A stretch of 62,962 nucleotides of DNA from a virus, in IMG/VR virus record IMGVR_UViG_3300034005_000004, positions 1 through 62,962 of that record; one strand, written 5' to 3'. Shown here piece by piece: positions 1,587-61,016 of this stretch. The position numbers and the translations under genes were made by a program. How positions within the stretch are numbered: position 1 is the first letter of the stretch; each line of letters starts with the position of its first letter. The notes under the pieces were generated by a model that was given only the letters and a program-made list of their open reading frames with translations, had not been told where the DNA came from and did not search any database.

Positions 1587-1952
1587 ATGACTAGAGAGTC
1601 GATTGAACGCTCACAAGAGCTACTCGAATCGTTCGCACGAAGTTATGGGTTGCCGGTATCGGTCGGCTACTTCCCGCCGTCTCACGCGCAGGCTATCAAC
1701 TACAACGAGCGCACAATTCAATTCACAGATGACAGCTTTTCCATGTGCGGAATTTATGATCAAGGGAAGATAGTCGCCGTCGTCGAATTCTTGAAGAATT
1801 TCTGCACCTGTAATCAGCACGACTGCGACCACAGGCAGGACGCCATCGGCGCAGCCTTCACCCTGATTCAGGCACATCAGAAGTTCAACGCCGCAGAGTG
1901 GGATCGCCGCCGTGTTGAGGCCGCGATTGATTCGGGGAAAGGGTTGTTATGA
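1587..1952 (+). CDS. Hypothetical protein
   Basis: 121-aa ORF, co-oriented and tightly packed. Confidence 0.65.
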   Translation: MTRESIERSQELLESFARSYGLPVSVGYFPPSHAQAINYNERTIQFTDDSFSMCGIYDQGKIVAVVEFLKNFCTCNQHDCDHRQDAIGAAFTLIQAHQKFNAAEWDRRRVEAAIDSGKGLL

Positions 1953-1957
1953 AGTAT

Positions 1958-2158
1958 CTAGCTATGATCGGAGCAGCCGCCCGTGACCGCATGGCCGCCT
2001 ATTATGCCGTGACCGAGGCGACCACCCGCAAATGTGTGGCCGCCCGCAACTGTATGACCGCCCGCGACCGAGTGACCTGTTCCCACCGTATGACCGCCTG
2101 CGACCGTTCTACCGCCTTGTACAGTGTGTCCTGCTCTACCTGAATATGTATGTCCCAT
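1958..2158 (-). CDS. G-H-T hexapeptide-repeat small protein, paralogue 1
   Basis: MGHTYSGRAGHTVQGGRTVAGGHTVGTGHSVAGGHTVAGGHTFAGG...; variation concentrated at codon third positions; TGCTACAGT extended -10 (rc of 2168-2176) 9 nt before the ATG. Confidence 0.6.
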   Translation of the reverse strand: MGHTYSGRAGHTVQGGRTVAGGHTVGTGHSVAGGHTVAGGHTFAGGRLGHGIIGGHAVTGGCSDHS

Positions 2159-2191
2159 AGTGGCGAAACTGTAGCATAGGGAGGGCTTGCG
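2159..2191. promoter_or_regulatory. Divergent control cassette between GHT ORF 1 and ORF 2192-2293
   Basis: 2150-2198 matches the reverse complement of 51549-51597 at 45/49 positions; carries the extended -10 on the minus strand and a GGGAGGG RBS on the plus strand. Confidence 0.55.
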
Positions 2192-2293
2192 ATGAAAGGC
2201 TCAGAACTTATCAAGCTGATTCAGGCTGAAATAGACGCCTTTGAGCAGCCGACCAACAGGAATTATCCGCACCTTGCCCTCGCTCTACGGTGA
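2192..2293 (+). CDS. Small hypothetical protein (33 aa)
   Basis: ATG 7 nt after GGGAGGG; below the ORF-track size cut-off; same start context (ATGAAAG) as gene 51109-51555. Confidence 0.4.
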   Translation: MKGSELIKLIQAEIDAFEQPTNRNYPHLALALR

Positions 2294-35995: not shown

Positions 35996-36607
35996 ATGTC
36001 ACAGCACGAGCAAAACAAATCCTTAACGGTTGATTGGTTGACGCCGCCCTATATCACAGAGGCGTTGCCAGTCTTTGACCTTGATCCGTGCGCGAGTACG
36101 CATCAAACATTAGCGACGGCGCGCAGGATGATCGTGTTACCGGAAGATGGTTTGCAGGTCAAGTGGGAAGGTAGCATTTGGCTCAATCCTCCTTATGGTC
36201 ACAAGCAGATCGCACCGTGGATGCGTAGGATGGCGCGGCACAACAACGGTGTCGCTCTTGTCTTTGCGAGGGTCGAAACCAAGTGGTTTCACCGTTTGGT
36301 TTGGCCTTTCGCTTCCGGTTTCTTCTTTTTTGAGGGCAGGCTGTCGTTTGTTCACGGGCAGGCATTAACGGACAGACAAAAATATGGAGGCAACGCGGCA
36401 TCGCCTTCCGTGCTGGTTGCCTACGGCAGACAATGTGAAGAATGGATTCGCAACCTAAAACTCTCTGGTCATTTCATTGCGAATCATCAATCAACTAACG
36501 ATCCCATCGCGGCCATCGAGGCCGCTCAGGGATACCAAATTCCTCCCTCAGCTAAAGTGGCCCACTTTGAAGATTCAAGCGCAGCATCGGGCCATCTGCC
36601 CGATTGA
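35996..36607 (+). CDS. Phage-type DNA N6-adenine methyltransferase (PF05869-like)
   Basis: 'DWLTPPYI', 'FDLDPCAS', 'WLNPPYG' motifs; lies in a lower-GC island. Confidence 0.7.
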   Translation: MSQHEQNKSLTVDWLTPPYITEALPVFDLDPCASTHQTLATARRMIVLPEDGLQVKWEGSIWLNPPYGHKQIAPWMRRMARHNNGVALVFARVETKWFHRLVWPFASGFFFFEGRLSFVHGQALTDRQKYGGNAASPSVLVAYGRQCEEWIRNLKLSGHFIANHQSTNDPIAAIEAAQGYQIPPSAKVAHFEDSSAASGHLPD

Positions 36608-36848: not shown

Positions 36849-37694
36849 ATGGCAGTAAAGCCGATTCTTGAGAGCCTGCGCTACCTGCGCGGGCGGCGAA
36901 TCTACATAAGCAAAAAGAGCATAGCCGCGTTCGTCGCGCTCGGGCTTGCGGGCGTGCTCACGCTCGCGCTCATCGTCTACAACCTGATTCGGTTTCGCCA
37001 TTACCAGGCGTGGGTGAGTCACACGCGGCAGGTCATAGGGGAGATTCGCGGGCTGCATGCTGCCGTCGTCGAGGCGGAAACGGGGCAGTCGCGGTTCGTC
37101 ATCACTCAAGATGGCGATTACCTGGACAACTACAAGGGGGCGCGGGCGAGCGCGTACGCGCAGGTAGAAAAGATGGAGACGCTTACTGCGGACAACCCGA
37201 ACCAGCGCGCGCTCATTCGCGAGGTGAGAGAGGCGATAGATGCCCGCCTCGCGACCCTTGCGACGGGGATAGAGCTGCGCGGGGCGCAGGGCCTTGACGT
37301 GACGCGCCAGGCGATGCTCACCGGGACCGGCAAGCGGCAGATGGACGGGATACGCGAGCTGATAACAAGGATGGAAAACGAGGAGATGCGCCTGCTCCGC
37401 GCGCGGGCGGGTAATGTGAGGGCGCAATGGGTTCAAACGCTCGCGATGCTGATTACGCCGCTGCCTCTCGCTTTGATCTTCCTCTTCCTGATAGGCGCGC
37501 TCGTCAATAAAGACATGGTCGATAAGGTGAAAGAGATGGAAGAGAGACAGGCCGCGAGTGAAGCGATCCTGCGTCACACGGAGGGCGTCAGGGCATTGAT
37601 GAAGAAAGAAGACCTGACATTTGATGCGATTCTTTCAGAGTCGGAGAGATTACTGAAAGAGCTTGAGATGCTCGCGCGCGCCCTCCCGAACTAA
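36849..37694 (+). CDS. Stand-alone CHASE3 sensor-domain membrane protein (no output domain)
   Basis: TM - 'WVSHTRQVIGEI...EAETGQSRFVITQDGDYLDNY...MDGIRELITRMENEEMRLL' (CHASE3 signature) - TM - ~70-aa coiled tail. Confidence 0.7.
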   Translation: MAVKPILESLRYLRGRRIYISKKSIAAFVALGLAGVLTLALIVYNLIRFRHYQAWVSHTRQVIGEIRGLHAAVVEAETGQSRFVITQDGDYLDNYKGARASAYAQVEKMETLTADNPNQRALIREVREAIDARLATLATGIELRGAQGLDVTRQAMLTGTGKRQMDGIRELITRMENEEMRLLRARAGNVRAQWVQTLAMLITPLPLALIFLFLIGALVNKDMVDKVKEMEERQAASEAILRHTEGVRALMKKEDLTFDAILSESERLLKELEMLARALPN

Positions 37695-38529: not shown

Positions 38530-38813
38530 GGAGAACTATGCCAGAACCATGTGACCACAGGAAGCTCGGCGTGGGTCAAATTCCATTTCGCGACCGCGTC
38601 GTTCATAACGTCTGCCTCGATTGCGGCGAAGACCTCGGGCCGGTCGTTCGAGAGGCTGTGATGCTTTACGAGAACGGTCCCTGCTCGCCCCCTACGGGGA
38701 TAGTAGAAGGGCAAACGACAGTGACAGTGCCGGAAGCGAGATTGCAAGAACTGAAGCAAGAAGCTCCCCGCTGGCACCCGATGTTGAGGGCCGTAATTGA
38801 GACGTACCCCTAA
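38526..38813 (+). CDS. Hypothetical protein
   Basis: ATGA overlap with the upstream gene; 95 aa. Confidence 0.55.
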   Translation: MRRTMPEPCDHRKLGVGQIPFRDRVVHNVCLDCGEDLGPVVREAVMLYENGPCSPPTGIVEGQTTVTVPEARLQELKQEAPRWHPMLRAVIETYP

Positions 38814-38824
38814 AGGGTGAAAAG

Positions 38825-39079
38825 ATGACACGCATAACAGAGAGCATAGCAAAAGCCGTAGATGCGCACGCGACGGAGCTGATCCTATTTATGTGGGCCG
38901 TAGTCGTGCTGATCGCATACTGCGTCAAGCCCCTGCCTGAACTCCTCGGGATTCTCAGCGGGGCCGCAGCCGCACTGTATGCAATCGCGCAGAAGCGCCC
39001 GAAGACAGAAGTCGCAGCGCAGATTGAGAATGCCGATCAAGTAAAGGTGAATTCGCGCGATCAAGTAACGATGAATTGA
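38825..39079 (+). CDS. Two-TM small membrane protein (holin-like)
   Basis: Hydrophobic segments 'LILFMWAVVVLIAYCV' and 'LLGILSGAAAALYAIA', charged C-terminus. Confidence 0.5.
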   Translation: MTRITESIAKAVDAHATELILFMWAVVVLIAYCVKPLPELLGILSGAAAALYAIAQKRPKTEVAAQIENADQVKVNSRDQVTMN

Positions 39080-39142
39080 CCATGCGGAGTCAGGTTTGAC
39101 TCCGCGAGCAGCTTCACCGCTCGCGCGGGGTCAGCGCGACAA

Positions 39143-39152
39143 GGGGGGGGGG
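39143..39152 (+). repeat. G10 homopolymer immediately upstream of the methyltransferase ATG
   Basis: Counted as ten consecutive G ending 1 nt before ATG 39153. Confidence 0.85.
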
Positions 39153-39968
39153 ATGAGTAGGCCTTTCACGTTAATGTTCGGAGATTGCCTAGACCGAATG
39201 AGCGAGATAGCACAAGGTAGCGTCAATATGGTTGCGGCTGACTTACCGTATAAGGCAACTATTCACGCATGGGATTCAATCATACCGTGCGAACCGCTCT
39301 GGAAGCAGTACAAGCGAGTTACGACGCGAAACGCAGCCATAGTGCTTACAGCCATCCAGCCATTCGCAAGTCTTCTAGTGATGAGCAATTTGAAAATGTT
39401 TCGCTATGAGCTAATAGCAGAAAAGACCATGCCTACGATGTTTCAGCAAGCGAAGAAAATGCCATTAAGAAAACATGAAAACGTGCTGGTGTTCTATAGG
39501 AAGTTGCCGACCTATAACCCGCAGTTTGAGGCCGGGAAACCTTACAAGCGCGCCGCTGGCAGCGGTGATCGAAAGGCCAGCGGATTTCATTCTCAAGCAA
39601 TTGTCAAAACGGCTATTGATAATAAAGGCACGCGCTACCCCGGCAGCGTGAAGAAATTCTCTAATTCAAATCACGGATTACTGCACCCGACCCAGAAATC
39701 AATCGAACTGATGGAGTATCTAATAAAGACATACTCAAACGAAGGCGACACGATTCTAGATAACGCGATGGGGTCAGGTACTACGGGCGAGGCATGTATT
39801 AATCTTAATCGGAAATTCATCGGCATAGAGAAAGACCCGCATTATTTCGAGGTCGCACAGGAACGAATCGAGAAGGCATGGGCCAGGAGAGAGATGGGCA
39901 TAACACCGCTCCCAAATATGCCGTTGTTCCCCGCGCCTAGCCAGGCGCGGTTCATCGAAGAAGGCTAG
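39153..39968 (+). CDS. DNA methyltransferase, N4/N6 (PF01555-like, beta class)
   Basis: 'VAADLPYK' (DPPY variant) N-terminal and 'TILDNAMGSGTTGEAC' AdoMet motif C-terminal. Confidence 0.75.
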   Translation: MSRPFTLMFGDCLDRMSEIAQGSVNMVAADLPYKATIHAWDSIIPCEPLWKQYKRVTTRNAAIVLTAIQPFASLLVMSNLKMFRYELIAEKTMPTMFQQAKKMPLRKHENVLVFYRKLPTYNPQFEAGKPYKRAAGSGDRKASGFHSQAIVKTAIDNKGTRYPGSVKKFSNSNHGLLHPTQKSIELMEYLIKTYSNEGDTILDNAMGSGTTGEACINLNRKFIGIEKDPHYFEVAQERIEKAWARREMGITPLPNMPLFPAPSQARFIEEG

Positions 39969-40012: not shown

Positions 40013-40765
40013 TCACCTTTTCATTTCTTGAATCGCAGCGAGAACGGCCTGACGCTCAAGCAGGGGCATGTTCTGAAGCTTCTTTTGCCATCGCTCTGTT
40101 TTCCTCTTGATCCTTTGCCGCTCGGTCTTGTCTCTTCCGAGGTACCTGTAGTCGTGAAGCTCGACGGGCTCGGGATAATTCATCCAGAGGTATTCGGTCG
40201 CCTGCGTGCCGTTGCGCGTGATCGCCTGATAGGTCAGGACGCGCCAGCCCTCAAGCACCTGTTCGTAGAGGCTTGAGCGATAGCCTGAGATCATTACCGG
40301 GCAGCGGAATCGCTTAAGCAGCTTCAGGAGTTGCAGATGTTGAAGGTCTGAGAATTCGCGCTCGTAGATGAGGGCCTTCTTGTGAGAGCGAGACTCAAGC
40401 AGGTACGGCGGGTCAAGGTAGATGAACTCGTCGCCCTTGAGCTTGAGATTTGAGAGTAAGGATATCGCGCAGCCGCAAATGACTGCCGTGCGCTGGCGGC
40501 TGCCGGGGTAGATACATTTGACTGCTTCGTCGATGCAGTTGTTTATGTCTACTGATCCAGGAAGGACCTCGCAGCCGATAGCGTCTGCGGTCGACCGGGC
40601 GACGGCAGGGTCGAGTTCTATGATGAGATTCACTTCTGCGGGCCGTGTGAAGCGCGAGATCGCGGCAGAGCCGCCGAAGGCTTCTATCTTCACACGATGC
40701 GGCGGTATCTGATTGATGATCGTCTGATAGACGCCCATTCCGTTCTTACTTCCAGGGTAATTCAT
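40013..40765 (-). CDS. dam: DNA adenine methyltransferase, D12/Dam class
   Basis: 'YPGSKNGM' N-terminal motif and 'IYLDPPYL' catalytic motif. Confidence 0.8.
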   Translation of the reverse strand: MNYPGSKNGMGVYQTIINQIPPHRVKIEAFGGSAAISRFTRPAEVNLIIELDPAVARSTADAIGCEVLPGSVDINNCIDEAVKCIYPGSRQRTAVICGCAISLLSNLKLKGDEFIYLDPPYLLESRSHKKALIYEREFSDLQHLQLLKLLKRFRCPVMISGYRSSLYEQVLEGWRVLTYQAITRNGTQATEYLWMNYPEPVELHDYRYLGRDKTERQRIKRKTERWQKKLQNMPLLERQAVLAAIQEMKR

Positions 40766-48864: not shown

Positions 48865-49116
48865 ATGATCCGTTATCTCATACGAAAGGTCGCTCAGAAG
48901 AAAGGCATCGCTAATCCTTATCAGCTCGCGCAGGCAACGGAGCTGCCGTATGAGTCTTGCCGTCGCCTCTGGGCCGATGATACATCGTCCATGTCGAAAG
49001 AGACGCTCGCCCGCCTCTGCGCAACGCTCAACGTGCAGCCTGCCGACTTGATTGACTGGATACCTGAGAATCGCGACCTCCCTCCTACGAAACGGCATCA
49101 GAGACGACGGTTATAA
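48865..49116 (+). CDS. XRE/Cro-type HTH regulator (paralogue of 53219-53530)
   Basis: 'NPYQLAQATELPYESCRRLW...ETLARLCATLNVQPADLI' aligns with the 53219 protein. Confidence 0.7.
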   Translation: MIRYLIRKVAQKKGIANPYQLAQATELPYESCRRLWADDTSSMSKETLARLCATLNVQPADLIDWIPENRDLPPTKRHQRRRL

Positions 49117-49414: not shown

Positions 49415-49894
49415 TCACAGCTTCTTAACGTACATCTCTAAATCAACGCGCTTGATACGACGCGCCCTGCCCGGCAACCGCTTCAGCTTGCCCTCCTGAA
49501 TCGCCTCAATGATATGAGACTTACCCAGGCCCGATAGCGCGACAGCTTCATCTACTGTCAGCACGAGCTTGATCGCGAGCTGACGGAGGTCGCGCGCGGG
49601 GGCCGCCGCCGCGCCTGGCTGAGACATGGCCTGCGCGATTTGCAAGCCGACCTGCTGGCCGATAGATTGCGCGATGATCGCGACCTCTTCGCCACGACGC
49701 GCGATGGCTGTCGTGGCGGGCTGTCGCGGCTCCTCCATCTTCAGCTTGAGCGCGCTCACTTCCCTTTCGTCGTAGAGCGCGCGCCTGTCGTCGTCGTAGG
49801 TGACGTGCAGCAAGCCCTTCGCGGTGTAGCGTTCAATCGCGCGGGTTGAGGTTCCTAGTATTTCTGATGCTTCCTTCTTGGTTAGCTTTTTCAT
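49415..49894 (-). CDS. Tandem excisionase/MerR-type HTH DNA-binding protein
   Basis: 'LTKKEASEILGTSTRAIERY' and 'LTVDEAVALSGLGKSHIIEAI' helix-turn-helix segments. Confidence 0.6.
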   Translation of the reverse strand: MKKLTKKEASEILGTSTRAIERYTAKGLLHVTYDDDRRALYDEREVSALKLKMEEPRQPATTAIARRGEEVAIIAQSIGQQVGLQIAQAMSQPGAAAAPARDLRQLAIKLVLTVDEAVALSGLGKSHIIEAIQEGKLKRLPGRARRIKRVDLEMYVKKL

Positions 49895-49951: not shown

Positions 49952-50293
49952 TCAATCAACGTAATCGAACTCTATTCGGTTAATGACCTTATCAACCGGA
50001 CATCTATTGTGCTTTGAAAACATCTCGACAAACCCTTCCGGCTCAAGATCAGGGAAGCCCTCAAGGATGCACTCTTCTTTCGTGATGGCGTTGAGCGGCT
50101 CGGGCCGATTGCTCACGCATCTACCCAGATCGAGATATACGATCTTCTCGCCTTTCTTCAACCCCTGGCACTGCTTAACCATGTTGAACAATTCGCCCGG
50201 TTTAAGGTCGGCCCATCCGAGGCGGCGAGTAACGCGCTTCGTGCGGTTCCTGATCTGTTCTTCTGTGATCATGAAGCTCATGTTTCTCGGCAT
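49952..50293 (-). CDS. ASCH-domain protein
   Basis: 'MSFMITEEQIRNRTKRVTRRLGW...' typical ASCH N-terminus; start ATG 50293 after AAAGGTG. Confidence 0.65.
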   Translation of the reverse strand: MPRNMSFMITEEQIRNRTKRVTRRLGWADLKPGELFNMVKQCQGLKKGEKIVYLDLGRCVSNRPEPLNAITKEECILEGFPDLEPEGFVEMFSKHNRCPVDKVINRIEFDYVD

Positions 50294-50335
50294 CTGCTTA
50301 CACCTTTCTAAAGCGCGTGCTATACTCAGCGCACT
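50294..50335. promoter_or_regulatory. Divergent control region; extended -10 TGCTATACT for GHT ORF 2
   Basis: TATACT at 50321-50326 preceded by TGC; ATG at 50336, 9 nt downstream; no SD. Confidence 0.5.
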
Positions 50336-50614
50336 ATGCAAGATCAATTAAACAACGGTCACACGCTTGCGGGCGGTCATGCGGTCACAAACGCCCGCCT
50401 CGGTCACGCCACGCCCGGCGGCAGAAATGGTCATACGGTCAGCGGCGGTAGAACAGCAATAGGCGGTCGCCTCAGTAATACTCCCGTCGTCGGACATACA
50501 ATAGGAGGCGGCAGAACGGGTCATACAATTACAGGCGGCCACACCTGGAGCGGGGGGCATACGCTCGGGGGTGGGCATAGCCTCGTCGGCGGAAGATCCG
50601 GTCATACGTGTTGA
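50336..50614 (+). CDS. G-H-T hexapeptide-repeat small protein, paralogue 2
   Basis: 92 aa: ...GHTLAGGHAVTNARLGHATPGGRNGHTVSGGRTAIGG...GHTITGGHTWSGGHTLGGGHSLVGGRSGHTC; third-position wobble pattern. Confidence 0.6.
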   Translation: MQDQLNNGHTLAGGHAVTNARLGHATPGGRNGHTVSGGRTAIGGRLSNTPVVGHTIGGGRTGHTITGGHTWSGGHTLGGGHSLVGGRSGHTC

Positions 50615-51128
50615 CGCGCCCGATGTGAACGCGAGGGAAGGCGGCGCACCATTGCGGCGCAGTCTTCCATTTCCAGGCAACAGTTCCGCCGATAAAAACA
50701 ACATCGGCATTATTGGGAACGTCTTTCCTGGTCATGCCGTCTTGCACGGCGAAGGCGAGCTTGAACCCGTAAGACTCGACGACGACGCTCCACTTGTCCC
50801 ACTCTTTAAGAGTGCCGTCGCGGTCGGCAACAACATCAGGGACAAGGGCCCAGAGCGGGGGCTGTCCCGCGAGCGCCGCCCGGTACGCCCATTCGAGTAG
50901 CTGAAGGTATGCAGGCTCGCTCCACGCGGTTCCGTTTTCCCAGGCAGGAAAACGGTTATTATCTAAAGCGTAAGGGAGCCATCTGTAGGGGCCGCGCTGC
51001 CCTGTCGGGCCGTAAAGATGACCGAGCAAGCCGGAGTATTTCGTCGCCCAATGATGCACGAGGGCTTTACTTGAATTTGCGGGCATAACCATCATAGGTT
51101 TGTATTCCTCACGCGCTCTTGCGCTCAT
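50529..51128 (-). CDS. Hypothetical protein (faint resemblance to DNA/tRNA transglycosylase-like phage proteins)
   Basis: 'VFIGGTVAWKWK' and 'HIGRVNT' motifs; the last 86 nt overlap the 3' end of GHT ORF 2. Confidence 0.55.
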   Translation of the reverse strand: MSARAREEYKPMMVMPANSSKALVHHWATKYSGLLGHLYGPTGQRGPYRWLPYALDNNRFPAWENGTAWSEPAYLQLLEWAYRAALAGQPPLWALVPDVVADRDGTLKEWDKWSVVVESYGFKLAFAVQDGMTRKDVPNNADVVFIGGTVAWKWKTAPQWCAAFPRVHIGRVNTYDRIFRRRGYAHPRAYAPRSRCGRL

Positions 51129-51555
51129 ACGACGACGACGTTACCTCGCACGCTCTGGCGTTCAGGTGATCTATCAGGTAGCGCGCGGCCCGGCGGTTCA
51201 ACTCCTCAGGCCTCAGCTTGAAGAGTTCCGCGCACTCGCGCTCCGCATAGATCCCCGCGCTGTTTGCGATGGCGTTAATGCAGACAAGCTGCTTCGGGGT
51301 TACGAGACTGCTCATTCTGCGCGCAACGGGATCGCCTTCAAACGCTCGCACGGGAGCGACGGGAGCGAAGCGCGGAGGCTCAAGCCCGGACAGGTTAGAA
51401 AGCAGACCGCGCAGCTCGAAGAGAGCCAGGTCTATAGCAGGGGCATCGCGCTCTATCAGAGCGTCAATCCTGCCCTGTATCAATAGCCGTATATGCTCGA
51501 CAGGCGACAAGCCCTGTCGTGTCGCGGTCCCTTCCGGCTGTGAATGATCTTTCAT
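51109..51555 (-). CDS. Hypothetical protein
   Basis: GGGAGGA RBS plus ATGAAAG start; 148 aa. Confidence 0.65.
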   Translation of the reverse strand: MKDHSQPEGTATRQGLSPVEHIRLLIQGRIDALIERDAPAIDLALFELRGLLSNLSGLEPPRFAPVAPVRAFEGDPVARRMSSLVTPKQLVCINAIANSAGIYAERECAELFKLRPEELNRRAARYLIDHLNARACEVTSSSYERKSA

Positions 51556-51588
51556 CGCAAATCCTCCCTATGCTATAGTCTCGCCACT
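51556..51588. promoter_or_regulatory. Divergent control cassette; extended -10 TGCTATAGT for GHT ORF 3
   Basis: TATAGT at 51574-51579 preceded by TGC; ATG at 51589, 9 nt downstream. Confidence 0.5.
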
Positions 51589-51795
51589 ATGGGACATGTA
51601 TACGGTTCAGGCAGAATGGGTCACGTTCTAGGCAGCGGCAGAGCAGACCATTCGACCACAGGCGGTTGCTCTGGTCACAACACAACTAGCGGTCATACTA
51701 TGTCTGGGAGCCACGCGCTTAGTGGTGGCCGCATAGTCCCGGGCGGTCGCACGGTAGCCGGCGGCTGCTCCGTTCATGGATTGATGGGCGGCTGA
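51589..51795 (+). CDS. G-H-T hexapeptide-repeat small protein, paralogue 3
   Basis: MGHVYGSGRMGHVLGSGRADHSTTGGCSGHNTTSGHTMSGSHALSGGRIVPGGRTVAGGCSVHGLMGG. Confidence 0.55.
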   Translation: MGHVYGSGRMGHVLGSGRADHSTTGGCSGHNTTSGHTMSGSHALSGGRIVPGGRTVAGGCSVHGLMGG

Positions 51796-51915
51796 TTTCA
51801 TATAGTTTATGCCACGATGTTTGCCCCGTTGAGGTTCGTCATCGCCCCCGCCTTTCGTGCCTCGCGCCTGATGCGGCGTTACGCTATTCAATCGTCGCGT
51901 AGCTGCGCCAGGTAT

Positions 51916-53122: not shown

Positions 53123-53211
53123 AATTCTACAACAAGTTAGTAGCGTGGTCAAGAAAATTCTACAACAAGTTAGTAAAAACTGCTTGCAATTATCAAAAAT
53201 GTGTAGATAAT
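53123..53211. promoter_or_regulatory. Divergent promoter/operator switch region
   Basis: 20-nt direct repeats AATTCTACAACAAGTTAGTA at 53123-53142 and 53156-53175, third half-site AAGTTAGTA at 53241-53249; leftward TTGACC-17-TAGAAT, rightward TTGCAA(53184)-16-GATAAT(53206). Confidence 0.65.
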
Positions 53212-53218
53212 AGCGGCT

Positions 53219-53530
53219 ATGGTGAATAGCTCGTCACAAAAAGTTAGTAAGCCGCGAGCGCGAAACTTGCAACAAGGAAGAAGAAAAGCTAAGCTTCGGC
53301 GCGTGATAACTTTCATAGTTAAAGAGATTGCGATTCGGGCAGGCTTTAAGAACCCGAATGAGCTTGCGGAAGCAACAGGCTTGCACTATGAGAGCGTTCG
53401 CCGTCTCTGGACCGGGACTTCGCGGCGGCTCGATTTAGATACCCTTGAGAAGCTTTGCCTGACGCTTCAGGTTCCTCCCGGCCAGCTATTCTCTTTTGAT
53501 TTCGAGTTCAAGAAGACGGATAAGCAATGA
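53219..53530 (+). CDS. XRE/Cro-type HTH regulator
   Basis: 'NPNELAEATGLHYESVRRLW...LEKLCLTLQVPPGQLF'; ATG lies 7 nt after the -10, so it is probably leaderless. Confidence 0.7.
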   Translation: MVNSSSQKVSKPRARNLQQGRRKAKLRRVITFIVKEIAIRAGFKNPNELAEATGLHYESVRRLWTGTSRRLDLDTLEKLCLTLQVPPGQLFSFDFEFKKTDKQ

Positions 53531-54556: not shown

Positions 54557-55501
54557 ATGAGCATTCAAGTTATGAATCTCGTGTGGCAGAACGCGCCATA
54601 CCAGGAAGGCACGCTGCTCGTTTTGCTAGCTCTTGCCGATTGGTCAGACGACGACGGTAAATCATTCCCTTCAATCCCAAAGCTTTCTATCAAAGCGCGG
54701 CAGAGCGAGCGGAACATCCGCTACGCGCTGAAGCGCCTCGAAAAAGACGGCGTCGTCGCGATTAAGAGGGCTGTAGGCAGGGGCAATCAGAGTACCTATC
54801 AGATCAACCTGGCGAAGCTCAGGCAGATGCCCGCCGTCGGAATAAAAGGTGAAAATATTGCAGGTTTTAGAGGAGGGAGAAAACCTGCAAAGTCGAACAG
54901 GGAAAACCTGCAAAGTCGAACGGAAAACCTGCAAAGTCGAACAAGCCCATCATTTGTTATGAACCATCATGATAACCATCATGGTAATACGTCATCATCA
55001 GGCGACGACGCGAAGGTATCTCAGATGCTCTCTCATGACGGAGGCCAGGCGGATGCGAAGCAAGAGAGGGCTTGCCGCTCGCTCTTAAAGAGATTTCCCG
55101 CCGAGCCTGTAGAGCGATTCCTTGCCTGTTACGACGATGCTGTCTCGCAGATTCTTCCGCCCGGCCAGAAGCGCACCCGGGAGAGATGGCGCGAGGTCTT
55201 CCTCGGCTGGCGCACGGTAGAGACCTACTTCCCGCAATGGCTCAAGCTCAACCCTGCGTCGTCGTCGAACGGTCGGGATGATTGGCGTTCGGCTACCCGC
55301 AAGATAATAAGCGGCCTGAACTGCGATGTCATGACGGATACAGAGCTGAAGCACGTCGTCGGGCTGCTCGACGAAATTGACGAAGGCCGGGGAGACTTCG
55401 CGGTATTTAAAGCGCTCCTAGAAAGCCCTGAGTTGCCCGCCGGGTTGAGGGAGAAGTGTCTGGCGGTCGCGGATGGGCGCGTTGGAGGAGCGAAGCGATG
55501 A
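54557..55501 (+). CDS. Replication initiator-like winged-HTH protein
   Basis: N-terminal 'LLVLLALADWSDDDGKSFPSIPKLSIKARQSERNIRYALKRLEKDGVV'; iterons embedded in the gene. Confidence 0.6.
   Translation: MSIQVMNLVWQNAPYQEGTLLVLLALADWSDDDGKSFPSIPKLSIKARQSERNIRYALKRLEKDGVVAIKRAVGRGNQSTYQINLAKLRQMPAVGIKGENIAGFRGGRKPAKSNRENLQSRTENLQSRTSPSFVMNHHDNHHGNTSSSGDDAKVSQMLSHDGGQADAKQERACRSLLKRFPAEPVERFLACYDDAVSQILPPGQKRTRERWREVFLGWRTVETYFPQWLKLNPASSSNGRDDWRSATRKIISGLNCDVMTDTELKHVVGLLDEIDEGRGDFAVFKALLESPELPAGLREKCLAVADGRVGGAKR
54857..54942 (+). repeat. Iteron array (candidate replication origin) inside the initiator gene
   Basis: GAAAACCTGCAAAGTCGAAC at 54879, 54902 and 54923 (23- and 21-bp spacing), plus inverted TTGCAGGTTTT upstream. 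Confidence 0.6.
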
Positions 55502-55666: not shown

Positions 55667-56527
55667 ATGAAGCACATTGTTGGGTTCTCAGGCGGAATAG
55701 ACTCTCAGGCTTGCGCCCGTTGGGTGCTGAATCGCTTCGGCCCTGAAGATACGATCATCGTTAATTCAGACGCTGGCGGCAACGAAGACCCGATCACTAC
55801 AGCTCATGTCGAATGGTATTCCGAGAATGTTCATCCTGTTGTGATGCTCTCGCCAATCGTCGCAGACATGGGCGGTCGAGCGAAGGGCAAGATCGCCGAG
55901 CTAGGGCTATCCCCGAACGATCCGCTCACCTTTGACCTGCTCGCAATTCTTAAACAGCGCTTTCCGAGCCGGAAAGCGCAATTCTGCACCGAACACCTGA
56001 AGCTTATACCGATGCTCCGCTGGCAGCAGCTAGTCTTCAGCGTGGGCGGTCAGTACGAAAGGGAGGATTACGAGCGGTACGCAGGGGTTCGCCGCGATGA
56101 AAGCGAGAAGCGTAGACACGCTTTAGAGCGAGAGTGGGACGCCCTATTTGACTGCTGGCTGAATCGCCCACTCGTAGAGTGGGATAAGCAGCGATGCTTC
56201 GATTACGTGCATTCTCACGGGGAAGAATCGAATCCTCTTTACAGATTGGGCTTTAATCGGGTTGGCTGCGCGCCGTGTATCAATTCGGGCAAAGATGACA
56301 TCCTGGCGTGGGTCCAAAGGCGGCCCGCGATGATCGAAAAGATTCGCGTTTGGGAAAACCGCGTTGGTCGCCCATATTTCCCGCCGATGGTTCCAGGCAT
56401 GTATATCAACTGGATTGATGACGTTATTCAGTGGGCGCAGACCTCGCACGGCGGCAGGCAGGCGAACTTTCTGCGCGTCTTGAATGATCGACCTAACTGC
56501 GAGAGCAAGTATGGATTATGCGAGTGA
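55667..56527 (+). CDS. PP-loop ATP pyrophosphatase, PAPS-reductase-like
   Basis: 'FSGGIDSQA' PP-loop, 'GVRRDESEKR', 'RVGCAPC' motifs. Confidence 0.75.
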   Translation: MKHIVGFSGGIDSQACARWVLNRFGPEDTIIVNSDAGGNEDPITTAHVEWYSENVHPVVMLSPIVADMGGRAKGKIAELGLSPNDPLTFDLLAILKQRFPSRKAQFCTEHLKLIPMLRWQQLVFSVGGQYEREDYERYAGVRRDESEKRRHALEREWDALFDCWLNRPLVEWDKQRCFDYVHSHGEESNPLYRLGFNRVGCAPCINSGKDDILAWVQRRPAMIEKIRVWENRVGRPYFPPMVPGMYINWIDDVIQWAQTSHGGRQANFLRVLNDRPNCESKYGLCE

Positions 56528-56881: not shown

Positions 56882-57754
56882 GTGATCTCCAGCAAGCTGA
56901 TAACACTTGAAAGACGACTGCCTGAGCGTGATGCAATCAGGGTCTTTCCTGCGCGTAACAAGTGGACACCTGACGACGAGCTTGCATTCGTCGGCGATCC
57001 TCCTCTTGAAGCATTTCGGCCTGGCACGCCTGATACTCCCGTGCTTGTCAGCGTTACCTTCACCTGGCATCGTCGCGAAGGCGAAAGGCTTCAGGCTGCG
57101 TGGGGTCAATATTACAGGGACGTGCGAATTGGCGGGCCTGCTTATGGTAACCCCGGCGGTGAGTTCACGCCGGGGCTGTTTATAAAGCGCGGCTGCACGA
57201 TCACAAGTAGAGGATGCTCAAAGAAGTGTGGTTGGTGTGATGTGCCGACCCGTGAAGGCGCGATCCGCGAGCTTGATATTAAGCCGGGCTGGATTGTGCA
57301 GGATAACAACCTGCTTGCCTGCTCAGAAGATCACATCCGCCGCGTTTTCGAGATGCTCAAGGAACAGAAGCGACGAATCTATTTCAATGGCGGCCTTGAT
57401 AAGCATTACTTGAAAGACTGGCATCGGCTCCTGTTTGACTCAATCCATATAGGCGAGCTGTGGTTTGCCTGTGATACCGCCGCAGACATTCCGCACTTAG
57501 AGAGAGCCGCGAAAATCTTAGACGGCATCCCGCTCAGAAAGCGGCGCTGTTACACGATGATAGGTTATGACGGCGAGAGCCTGGCAGATGCAGAGCGCAG
57601 AATTGAGCGCGTCTTTCGATTAGGTTTCATGCCTTTCTGTCAACTCTACCAGCCGGAGGAAACGAAGGTGTACCCGCTTGAGTGGCGACAGCTTCATCGG
57701 AAATGGTCACGCCCGGCGGCCTATATGCCTGGCGTGAGCGAGGGCGAAGGCTGA
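56882..57754 (+). CDS. Radical SAM enzyme
   Basis: 'CSKKCGWC' CX3CX2C cluster motif near aa 110; GTG start overlapping the upstream stop. Confidence 0.7.
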   Translation: MISSKLITLERRLPERDAIRVFPARNKWTPDDELAFVGDPPLEAFRPGTPDTPVLVSVTFTWHRREGERLQAAWGQYYRDVRIGGPAYGNPGGEFTPGLFIKRGCTITSRGCSKKCGWCDVPTREGAIRELDIKPGWIVQDNNLLACSEDHIRRVFEMLKEQKRRIYFNGGLDKHYLKDWHRLLFDSIHIGELWFACDTAADIPHLERAAKILDGIPLRKRRCYTMIGYDGESLADAERRIERVFRLGFMPFCQLYQPEETKVYPLEWRQLHRKWSRPAAYMPGVSEGEG

Positions 57755-59888: not shown

Positions 59889-61016
59889 ATGGCTGAGAAA
59901 ACAAGTATCGAATGGACTGACGCGACATGGAACCCGATTCGGGGTTGCTCACGGGTTTCTGAAGGCTGTCGTAACTGCTACGCGGAAGGGATTGCCGCGA
60001 GGTTCTCTGGAGCAAGGCGAGCCTACGAGGGACTCGCGCAGATGACGACGAGCGGGCCGCGATGGACTGGCGAAGTGCGTTTGATTGAGGACCATCTTCA
60101 AGACCCGCTAAGGTGGAAGAGCCCCCGCAGAATATTCGTCAACTCGATGAGCGATCTATTTCATGAATCAATTCCTGACGAGTGGGTAGATAGAATCTTT
60201 GCCGTCATGGCGCTTGCACCGCAGCACACCTTTCAGGTTCTGACGAAGCGAGCGGAGAGGCTTCCCGGTTACTTTAGCCAGATACATCACTGTGGCCCGT
60301 ATACCGACGTTATTACGCGGATTGCGGCTCACACGGAGACTATCGCGCCTATTAGACTCAGAAAGCTATGGCCTCTGCCTAACGTGCAGCTCGGCGTCTC
60401 GGTCGAGGATCAGAAGACGGCAGATGAGCGCATACCACATCTACTCAATACACCCGCTGCTGTTCGCTTTATTTCAGCGGAGCCGCTGCTCGGGCCGATT
60501 GACGTTGAACGGTATCTTGACCCTACAGGGTTCCAATGCATTGACCCTGACTGCGTTCACCGTTATCTCAAGTTTGTCGATGAAGACGATTATGAAACGA
60601 CATCGGATAACGACCCGATATGCCGTGACTGCGGCCAGGTAGGAACATGGACGGGTTATGAGCGTGGGGTTGATTGGGTGATCGTCGGCGGCGAATCAGG
60701 ACACAGCGCGCGGCCCATGCATCCACAATGGGCCAGGGGCTTGCGCGATCAATGCGATGCAGCCGGGGTGAGCTTCTTTTTTAAACAATGGGGTGAGTAT
60801 CGGCCTTTCACCCAAGCCGAAGTGGATGATCTATCAACGCCGGGGAGGCTTGTTGATGCTTACTGCGAGTGTGGGTATTACTGCGATGAAGCAGTCGGAC
60901 ACGTAGATCACGGAGCATTCCCGATGCGTCGCGTAGGCAAAAAGAAGGCGGGCCGCTTGCTCGATGGCCGAACCTGGGATGAGTTCCCTAACACAACGGA
61001 GCAGCATGACAGCTAA
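59889..61016 (+). CDS. Phage Gp37/Gp68 family (DUF5131) three-Cys protein
   Basis: 'SIEWTDATWNPIRGCSRVSEGCRNCYAE' N-terminal signature; 'GGESG' and 'FFFKQWGE' C-terminal motifs. Confidence 0.75.
   Translation: MAEKTSIEWTDATWNPIRGCSRVSEGCRNCYAEGIAARFSGARRAYEGLAQMTTSGPRWTGEVRLIEDHLQDPLRWKSPRRIFVNSMSDLFHESIPDEWVDRIFAVMALAPQHTFQVLTKRAERLPGYFSQIHHCGPYTDVITRIAAHTETIAPIRLRKLWPLPNVQLGVSVEDQKTADERIPHLLNTPAAVRFISAEPLLGPIDVERYLDPTGFQCIDPDCVHRYLKFVDEDDYETTSDNDPICRDCGQVGTWTGYERGVDWVIVGGESGHSARPMHPQWARGLRDQCDAAGVSFFFKQWGEYRPFTQAEVDDLSTPGRLVDAYCECGYYCDEAVGHVDHGAFPMRRVGKKKAGRLLDGRTWDEFPNTTEQHDS

Follow-up and report, generated by a model that had tools for sequence, protein, structure and literature searches.

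Closest described systems and the three GHT loci

Small open reading frames (ORFs) lying in the gaps between operon genes, each with a promoter-like element of its own, are familiar from phage genomes as morons. The cI gene of phage lambda, when transcribed from PRM, is an example of a leaderless phage gene, while lambda oop and P22 sar are cis-antisense RNAs, that is, short, structured, terminated and non-coding units placed head-on in phage operons. The window analysed here is the whole 62,962-bp stretch of IMG/VR record IMGVR_UViG_3300034005_000004, a metagenomic contig of a soil phage with 56% GC, which is also deposited within a metagenome-assembled genome labelled ‘Blastocatellia bacterium’ (phylum Acidobacteriota). 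It contains three loci that share traits with each of these systems and are called GHT here after the recurring Gly-His-Thr string of their putative products:

1958–2158, minus strand: GHT mini-gene 1 (locus 1), 66 amino acids, MGHTYSGRAGHTVQGGRTVAGGHTVGTGHSVAGGHTVAGGHTFAGGRLGHGIIGGHAVTGGCSDHS
50336–50614, plus strand: GHT mini-gene 2 (locus 2), 92 amino acids
51589–51795, plus strand: GHT mini-gene 3 (locus 3), 68 amino acids

On balance, and with modest confidence, we read the three loci as paralogous, moron-like, leaderless mini-genes for orphan cationic hexad-repeat peptides. The gene family is without relatives, yet the kind of element, a small self-promoted phage accessory ORF, is a familiar one. 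Besides their size, position and promoter-like elements, the GHT ORFs resemble morons in being absent from the flanks of the large terminase subunit (TerL) genes of three distant relatives and in that one copy disrupted a neighbouring gene. They differ in having three paralogous copies, all antisense to operons, and no clear terminators; moreover, no integrase was found among the scanned ORFs of the window. From oop and sar, which they resemble in their head-on placement, they are set apart by a frame of 66–92 codons, a coding signature and no structure signal.

The coordinates and translations of the three ORFs agree with those in a preliminary description of the window, and the ten GHT 9-mers listed there for locus 2 are exact. 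All three frames consist almost wholly of G-[HR]-[TAS]-hydrophobic-x-G hexads, interrupted by occasional inserts of 2–3 residues; an example stretch is TVAGGHTVGTGHSVAGGHTVAGGHTFAGGR. At the nucleotide level, locus 1 shows an 18-nt period at 2020–2107 (Tandem Repeats Finder), and the string CGCCTCGGTCACG is common to loci 1 and 2. The motif GGNCAYAC has 18 sites in the window against 8.1 ± 2.8 in shuffles, none of which reached 18, and 13 of these sites lie inside the three GHT loci, which together cover ~690 nt.

The predicted peptides are cationic (6.2–9.0 kDa, pI 9.5–12), contain 28–32% Gly and 10–14% His and have no Lys and no Glu. Cys occurs solely near the C-terminus, as had been noted before and as a composition check agrees. 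The grand average of hydropathicity (GRAVY) is −0.2 to −0.5, i.e., the peptides are not hydrophobic, and a type I toxin was rejected on this ground. A collagen-like G-x-y repeat was rejected because Gly does not occupy every third residue, and a template/variable repeat pair of a diversity-generating retroelement because the repeat variation does not fit and no reverse transcriptase was seen among the scanned ORFs.

Rightward genes extend from ~53.6 kb through the contig end and on from its start to ~44 kb, and the stretch from 53.15 to 44.9 kb carries leftward genes. Loci 2 and 3 are situated within the leftward block and locus 1 within the rightward block, and all three ORFs run against the surrounding genes, as the preliminary description had it; the 86-nt overlap that it reported between locus 2 and the convergent ORF 50529–51128 is likewise correct. 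The immediate neighbours of the loci are a DpdA-like gene, orphan ORFs and helix-turn-helix (HTH) regulators.

Promoter-start architecture

On the two strands of the 62,962 bp, the motif TGCTA[TC]A[CG]T has only three occurrences, each of them exactly 9 nt before the ATG of a GHT ORF:

2168–2176, minus strand: TG-extended −10-like element of mini-gene 1, TGCTACAGT, 9 nt before the ATG
50297–50326, plus strand: promoter-like site of mini-gene 2 (CTTACA, 18 nt, TG-TATACT), with the −10 element at 50318–50326
51571–51579, plus strand: −10 element of mini-gene 3, TGCTATAGT

The hexamers at the three loci are TATACT, TATAGT and TACAGT, each TG-extended, and the 9-nt spacers (cagcgcact, ctcgccact and ttcgccact) contain no purine run resembling a Shine-Dalgarno (SD) sequence. 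The earlier observation of an extended −10 placed 9 nt upstream, with no SD, thus proved exact at every locus. Only locus 2 has a passable −35 and passes a sigma-70 scan with the TG extension, as a consensus match; loci 1 and 3 have the extended −10 with no −35. The site of mini-gene 2 overlaps the SD region of the divergent minus-strand ORF that starts at 50293.

In a generic scan of the window for TGnTAnnnT followed by a start codon, the same layout was seen at two regulator genes:

48865–49116, plus strand: Cro/C1-type HTH gene (HTH_26, 83 amino acids); element from 48848, TGCTACTAT + 8 nt + ATG at 48865
49415–49894, minus strand: MerR/HTH_17 gene (excisionase-like, 159 amino acids); element to 49912, TGCTATCTT + 9 nt + ATG at 49894

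No SD precedes either gene, and gene callers picked the same ATGs for both. The first matches PF13443 with E = 2.7e-14, the domain beginning at residue 6. Since these two genes share the layout, the phage appears to use a leaderless design for real genes, and the leaderless reading of the GHT loci put forward in the preliminary description is strengthened by two Pfam-supported genes of the window with TGCTAYnnT-N8/9-ATG. The window has 11 TGCTAYnnT sites in total, and at 5 of them an ATG follows after 8–9 nt and starts an ORF of 66 or more amino acids (binomial p ~6e-6); with four hits, approximating loci 1 and 3 as one, the enrichment has p ~1.5e-4. From its sequence, TGCTAYnnT-N8/9-ATG looks like a leaderless promoter class of the phage or its host.

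A TANNNT hexamer just upstream of the start codon is a signature of bacterial leaderless genes (PMC3160421). The GHT loci resemble such genes in having a −10-like TATAST in the place of the SD, a TG extension and an ATG within reach of the transcription start. They differ in spacing: the hexamer A lies 14 nt from the ATG, the most distant position in the −14 to −8 range (PMC3160421), and the first T of the hexamer lies 15 nt before the ATG versus the usual ~12 nt. A leader of 2–3 nt is therefore just as likely as none, and with a spacing ~3 nt above the mode a leader of 0–3 nt is to be expected.

The HTH gene 48865–49116 is antisense to the leftward operon, as expected of a repressor gene. A further element, TGCTATGCT, is present at 38695–38851 (minus strand), 7 nt before the ATG of an ORF of 47 amino acids with a hydrophobic C-terminal half; this ORF, antisense to the rightward block, may be another leaderless mini-gene.

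Coding evidence in the GHT frame

The preliminary description had argued for selection on the peptide from the invariance of positions 1, 2, 4 and 5 of the GHT 9-mers. This argument is circular, because the units were chosen for being G-H. We therefore cut the uninterrupted arrays into 27 units of 18 nt defined by register and not by G-H content, and on these units the conclusion itself is partly supported, as the variability has a period of 3 that favours selection on the GHT frame rather than on the antisense frame or on a plain DNA or RNA repeat. Codon positions 1, 2 and 3 have mean entropies of 1.23, 1.07 and 1.69 bits, the third being the most variable in 6/6 codon columns. If the columns were unrelated, 6/6 would arise by chance with a probability of (1/3)^6, ~0.001, or ~0.01 when the two Gly anchor codons are left out.

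The Nei-Gojobori ratio of nonsynonymous to synonymous differences (pN/pS) among the units is 0.63 in the GHT frame versus 1.07 in the codon-aligned antisense frame, and the value of 0.63 was attained by 2 of 300 column-order shuffles. The antisense frame is thus scrambled among the units, as had been claimed before; between whole loci the claim finds little support, the strands being barely separated there. The other frame with a low ratio, on the opposite strand with the same third positions, is full of stops.

Position 4 of the hexad has a middle T in 20 of the 27 units with the flanking bases free, which yields V, L, I, F, M and, once, W from 12 codons (GTA, GTC, GTG, GTT, TTT, ATA, CTT, ATT, CTC, CTA, ATG and TGG). 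Such a column of hydrophobic codons fits a peptide and would be hard to explain by a DNA or RNA motif. We see next to no probability in the idea that the repeats serve, at the DNA level, as an array of binding sites for proteins (iterons, operators or a pac site) with the unit GGTCATACG. Three places do have direct repeats with an 18-nt period, and one of these lies ~2.4 kb upstream of the terminase genes, but the core varies at every third base, the 18-nt period is not helical and indels of 3, 6 and 9 nt put the units out of phase. Better-kept tandem repeats of 21 nt (93% matches) are, moreover, already available in the O-like gene, at 54879–54943.

The GHT frame is the sole frame open from the ATG to the repeat end at all three loci. 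Among composition shuffles, fractions of 0.095, 0.043 and 0.089 stay open for the respective loci, and the chance of the three frames being open jointly is ~4e-4. Long-range paralogue offsets are multiples of 3 and not of 18.

A variant of the coding explanation places the real genes on the operon strand, as the codon-aligned antisense ORFs 1949–2143 (plus), 51628–51804 (minus) and 50348–50710 (minus). These encode [RCSG]-[MV]-[TASP]-type repeats and, having the same direction as the operons, would be co-transcribed with their neighbours; an ATGA overlap joins the ORF at 1949 to the upstream stop, gene calling in one assembly gave a 49-aa piece of the antisense frame at locus 2, and the locus 1–3 pN/pS is 0.60 in both frames. 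This arrangement is nevertheless very unlikely. On that strand the variable positions are first codon positions, with the ratio of 1.07 among the units, and the log-likelihood per codon falls below that of the GHT frame at all three loci. The locus-2 version would share ~180 nt with dpdA in another frame, no SD precedes the locus-3 version, stops truncate the frame near the GHT 5′ ends and no Pfam match above noise was obtained for these ORFs. Peptide coding in the GHT frame is, hence, the best-supported reading of the repeats, with support that is moderate and intrinsic to the sequence.

Local anatomy, duplication and the DpdA-like gene

Each GHT ORF occupies the gap ahead of the next operon gene, and the two start back-to-back on opposite strands. 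The ATG of locus 1 at 2158 (minus) faces an ATG at 2192 (plus) with 33 nt between them; at locus 3, the ATGs at 51589 (plus) and 51555 (minus) are also 33 nt apart, and at locus 2 those at 50336 (plus) and 50293 (minus) are separated by 42 nt. In every case, the −10 adjoins the complement of the facing gene's SD (cctccct, cctccct and cacctttc). The following features surround the loci:

2150–2198, minus strand: control region of locus 1, with the facing ORF's start codon and SD complement, the −10, the spacer and ATGGGACAT
51549–51597, plus strand: control region of locus 3, counterpart of 2150–2198, holding the −10
2192–2293, plus strand: divergent ORF of 33 amino acids with a strong (perfect) SD, AGGGAGGG
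51109–51555, minus strand: orphan gene of 148 amino acids, back-to-back with mini-gene 3
50529–51128, minus strand: DpdA-like gene, its last ~20 codons being antisense GHT repeats
50636–50668, plus strand: possible weak terminator, a hairpin followed by AUUUCC, 22 nt past the stop of mini-gene 2 (region z = −2.0)

The control regions of loci 1 and 3 are identical at 45 of 49 nt (92%), the ORF bodies at ~66%, and this difference argues for selection on the control region. The ORF 2192–2293 matches residues 25–45 of the 148-aa protein (46% identity over 24 amino acids, E = 0.002), which identifies it, by sequence match, as a truncated paralogue of the N-terminus of gene 51109–51555. By the same comparison, loci 1 and 3 are a segmental duplication that carried along the 5′ end of the neighbour. 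A word-indexed protein search found no homologue of the 148-aa gene.

The DpdA-like ORF aligns with three homologues up to ‘...RVNTYDRIF’ and then continues without the conserved ‘C..G.DS.DGT’ block, and its PHROG alignment ends at profile position 166 of 212. As judged from these alignments, locus 2 has replaced the conserved C-terminus of the DpdA-like gene, which is probably truncated or inactive. By analogy with tRNA-guanine transglycosylases (TGT enzymes), the missing block may hold a catalytic Asp. A split or intron-interrupted dpdA was rejected, as no minus-strand frame past the cassette contains a DS.DGT motif. Among IMG/VR sequences, the closest DpdA-like relative (45% identity) stands beside a terminase, an ORF of 149 amino acids and an ORF that reads from its sequence as a putative QueD-like gene; the DpdA-like gene of the window phage has none of these neighbours.

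The damaged DpdA-like gene at locus 2 and the truncated ORF at locus 1 look like the debris of rearrangements, and the GHT loci could themselves be non-functional relics, i.e., a duplicated and decaying 18-nt DNA repeat that is stop-free by chance and lies near promoter-like strings. Orphan sequences, atypical codons and weak between-locus constraint would all be in keeping with this. We find it unlikely: the three copies keep the ATG, the promoter and the open frame despite a body identity of ~66%, with the control region at 92%, and neither the significant period-3 variability nor the low joint chance of three open frames is expected of decaying DNA. Phage genomes, besides, seldom retain inert gaps of 200–470 nt.

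Searches for relatives, fold and RNA

The preliminary description could place the peptides in no named family, and the searches bear this out. Pfam, PHROGs, NCBIfam, the Protein Data Bank (PDB) and a profile search of 1.84 billion proteins all failed to supply a relative. Hmmscan of the three peptides gave no Pfam family at E ≤ 0.1 or at E ≤ 10, no family was assigned in PHROGs or NCBIfam, and the PDB sequence profile search returned nothing better than E ≥ 0.8. No GHT ORF or start variant was present in a collection of 15 billion proteins by exact look-up, and a word-indexed protein search with the 92-aa peptide had no match.

Codon-degenerate scans of DNA, which would also pick up uncalled ORFs, were similarly negative. 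Nothing related turned up in IMG/VR when it was scanned with two promoter-start patterns, a GHT codon pattern and peptide patterns. A scan of metagenome contigs for a G-H-x3-G-G-H codon pattern and one of genome contigs for a G-H-T codon pattern yielded, among the matches listed, only simple GGH, GHTAQ-type or similar repeats, and GHT ORFs are absent from the sequences on either side of three TerL relatives and one DpdA relative.

Several known protein types are similar in composition or period. The left-handed beta-helix hexapeptide (PF00132/PF14602) shares the six-residue period, one aliphatic position and Gly-rich turns, and G-H-T strings also occur in LpxA-type hexads. Set against its register [LIV]-[GAED]-x2-[STAV]-x, however, the GHT order hydrophobic-x-G-G-H-T puts His at i+4, the peptides would form only ~3–5 coils with insertions of 2–3 residues, and there is no Pfam match at E 10. 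Membership of this family was rejected, since the profile and register tests both failed. AlphaFold2 produced no secondary structure, with a predicted local distance difference test score (pLDDT) of 40 from the 3-sequence alignment and 44 from a single sequence, an input so shallow that a fold cannot be excluded by it. The His-ladder beta-solenoid proposed earlier is unsupported by these models and by the lack of a Hexapep or PDB match.

Plant shepherins, which are GGH repeats, and the nickel-storage protein Hpn of Helicobacter are, like the GHT peptides, small, Gly/His-rich, cationic and of low complexity. They have no sequence relationship to the GHT peptides, whose His content is lower (10–14%), whose Thr and hydrophobic positions are fixed and whose context is a phage. 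In Terriglobales (Acidobacteriota), signal-peptide proteins of ~550 amino acids contain long (G-G-H-[TA]-A-[QA])n arrays, beyond which lies a conserved Gly/His/Tyr/Trp-rich domain:

L219, 2762–4513: Terriglobales array protein
L167, 4319–5944, minus strand: Terriglobales array protein
L155, 1184–2881: Terriglobales array protein

Their GGHT-containing hexapeptides and their phylum, the same as that of the contig's bin, amount to a compositional similarity only: the arrays are near-perfect tandems with no hydrophobic position, they were not retrieved by the GHT profile search and no homology is shown.

The preliminary description had also suggested precursors of ribosomally synthesized and post-translationally modified peptides (RiPPs), which in this phage would be substrates of a radical-SAM protein (56882–57754) and a PAPS-reductase-like PP-loop protein (55667–56527). 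Both enzyme types are encoded in the same genome, and the repeated His/Thr/Cys motifs are similar to multi-core RiPP precursors with their repeated core motifs. We regard the idea as highly improbable. RiPP precursors typically lie beside their modifying enzymes, most often within one operon or on one strand. The two enzyme genes lie 4–6 kb away on the other strand, in an oppositely oriented replication operon next to the O-like initiator, and are common phage accessory genes (phrog_424 for the PAPS-reductase, phrog_9298 for the radical-SAM protein). Near the GHT peptides there was no sign of a leader peptide, a recognition-element domain, a protease or an exporter, and NCBIfam and Pfam contain no matching precursor family.

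RNA folding of both strands of the GHT loci gave z from −1.7 to +1.7, no better than shuffles, there were 0 Rfam matches and a tRNA search found none. These results bear on the possibility that the loci act through a cis-antisense RNA, with an incidental ORF, the operon being damped by transcriptional collision or an RNA duplex. The targets of this RNA would be, at locus 2, the 3′ end of the dpdA-like gene, at locus 3, the spacer that precedes the 148-aa gene and, at locus 1, gene 1587–1952. All three units stand head-on in operons with the −10 beside the neighbour's SD region, codon usage is atypical, some nucleotide strings are kept (CGCCTCGGTCACG, loci 1 and 2), the profile search of 1.84 billion proteins found no peptide homologue, and an antisense RNA arises automatically if the promoters fire. 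This possibility is unlikely. A fixed 9-nt distance to an ATG, a 66–92-codon frame, period-3 variability and a column of hydrophobic codons would all be superfluous in an antisense RNA, and perfect cis-complementarity requires no repeat; structure beyond that of shuffles, an Rfam match and clear terminators are all missing.

Weighing and proposed mode of action

A number of observations weigh against the peptide-coding mini-genes. Codon usage departs from that of the phage: GGT accounts for 24 of 67 Gly codons (36%) versus 8% in the phage (p 1.5e-10), AGA for 8 of 13 Arg codons versus 12% (p 3e-5), the GC content at third codon positions (GC3) is 0.53 versus 0.68, and the log-likelihood per codon (−0.1 to −0.2) is lower than for every long gene. 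These atypical codons could reflect residual DNA-level repeat identity or nucleotide-level constraint. Whole-locus pN/pS, computed on DNA-only alignments, is 0.60/0.60, 0.67/0.92 and 0.85/0.88 for the GHT and antisense frames; these values indicate little constraint between loci and hardly set the two strands apart. The codon-aligned antisense frame is nearly open, and at locus 1 it starts as an ATGA overlap on the upstream gene. Gene callers called the GHT frame in none of the eight assemblies of the phage, which are 100% identical across loci 2 and 3 and so offer no microdiversity for a population-level test. A hidden Markov model profile of the three peptides, searched against 1.84 billion representative proteins, retrieved unrelated low-complexity sequences only (best E = 1.3e-5). 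Terminator scans found no clear terminator directly downstream of the GHT loci, the hairpin at 50636–50668 not being detected by the scan, and, at 9 nt, the spacer is among the longest expected of a true leaderless start.

With these points taken into account, the GHT loci as leaderless mini-genes would work as follows. A host sigma-70-type RNA polymerase would start at the TG-extended −10 (TGCTAYAST), with little or no need of a −35. The transcript would begin 0–3 nt before the ATG and be translated as leaderless mRNA, giving a cationic peptide of 6–9 kDa built of G-[HR]-[TAS]-hydrophobic-x-G hexads, and this peptide would be the selected product. As a guess, it may act as a flexible His/Arg-rich module that binds metal ions or nucleic acid. 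As each unit would fire head-on into an operon, its RNA would necessarily be antisense to that operon, and a throttling of the operons by antisense transcription is possible.

A combined scheme goes further and takes the loci to be dual-function elements: leaderless mini-genes set head-on to the ribosome-binding regions of operons, whose RNA throttles the operon while the GHT peptide acts on the host, the whole being a duplicative cassette that overwrites genes such as dpdA. The peptide would then possibly be a metal-dependent His-ladder solenoid or a multi-core radical-SAM substrate. We judge this combination distinctly unlikely.

Other features of the phage genome

The TerL of the window phage has a best identity of 54% among 5.8 billion clustered proteins, and megablast of the window region against 50,697 phage records revealed no DNA-level match.

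Between the leftward and rightward blocks, at 53124–53211, lie divergent sigma-70-like promoters, TTGACC-17-TAGAAT (minus) and TTGCAA-16-GATAAT (plus), adjoined by an HTH_26 gene at ~53219–53530. By sequence, these promoters and the HTH_26 gene are likely an early genetic switch. Further to the right, three 21–22-nt tandem repeats, GAAAACCTGCAAAGTCGAACAG (93% matches), are located at 54879–54943 (plus) inside the ORF of an O-like replication initiator (54557–55501); they resemble lambda-type iterons, with an origin inside the initiator gene. The PAPS-reductase-like gene (phrog_424, 55667–56527, plus) follows, then the radical-SAM gene (phrog_9298, 56882–57754, plus) with CxxxCxxC at 57215, and a DUF5131 gene is found at 59889–61016. 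Three DNA methyltransferase genes of the Dam-like, N6_N4_Mtase and D12 classes are present (35996–36607, 39096–39968, 40013–40765 (−)). Taken together, the three methylases and the DpdA-like, PAPS-reductase-like, radical-SAM and DUF5131 genes suggest a heavy investment in DNA modification. An ORF at 36849–37694 (plus) has a strong match to the CHASE3 sensor domain (E = 2.7e-35), an unusual cargo for a phage.

Significance

Should the GHT loci be unexpressed, they would serve as a caution that repeat DNA can imitate coding signatures. If the peptides are real, they constitute a protein family with no relative among ~15 billion predicted proteins, and since gene callers missed the GHT frames in eight of eight assemblies, they would also be an example of the hidden small-protein content of environmental phages. 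The head-on arrangement in three copies is a simple genetic system for separating the effects of a peptide from those of an antisense RNA. Given real peptides, the TGCTAYnnT-N8-9-ATG layout could also guide searches for further genes of this kind in phages of Acidobacteriota-like hosts.

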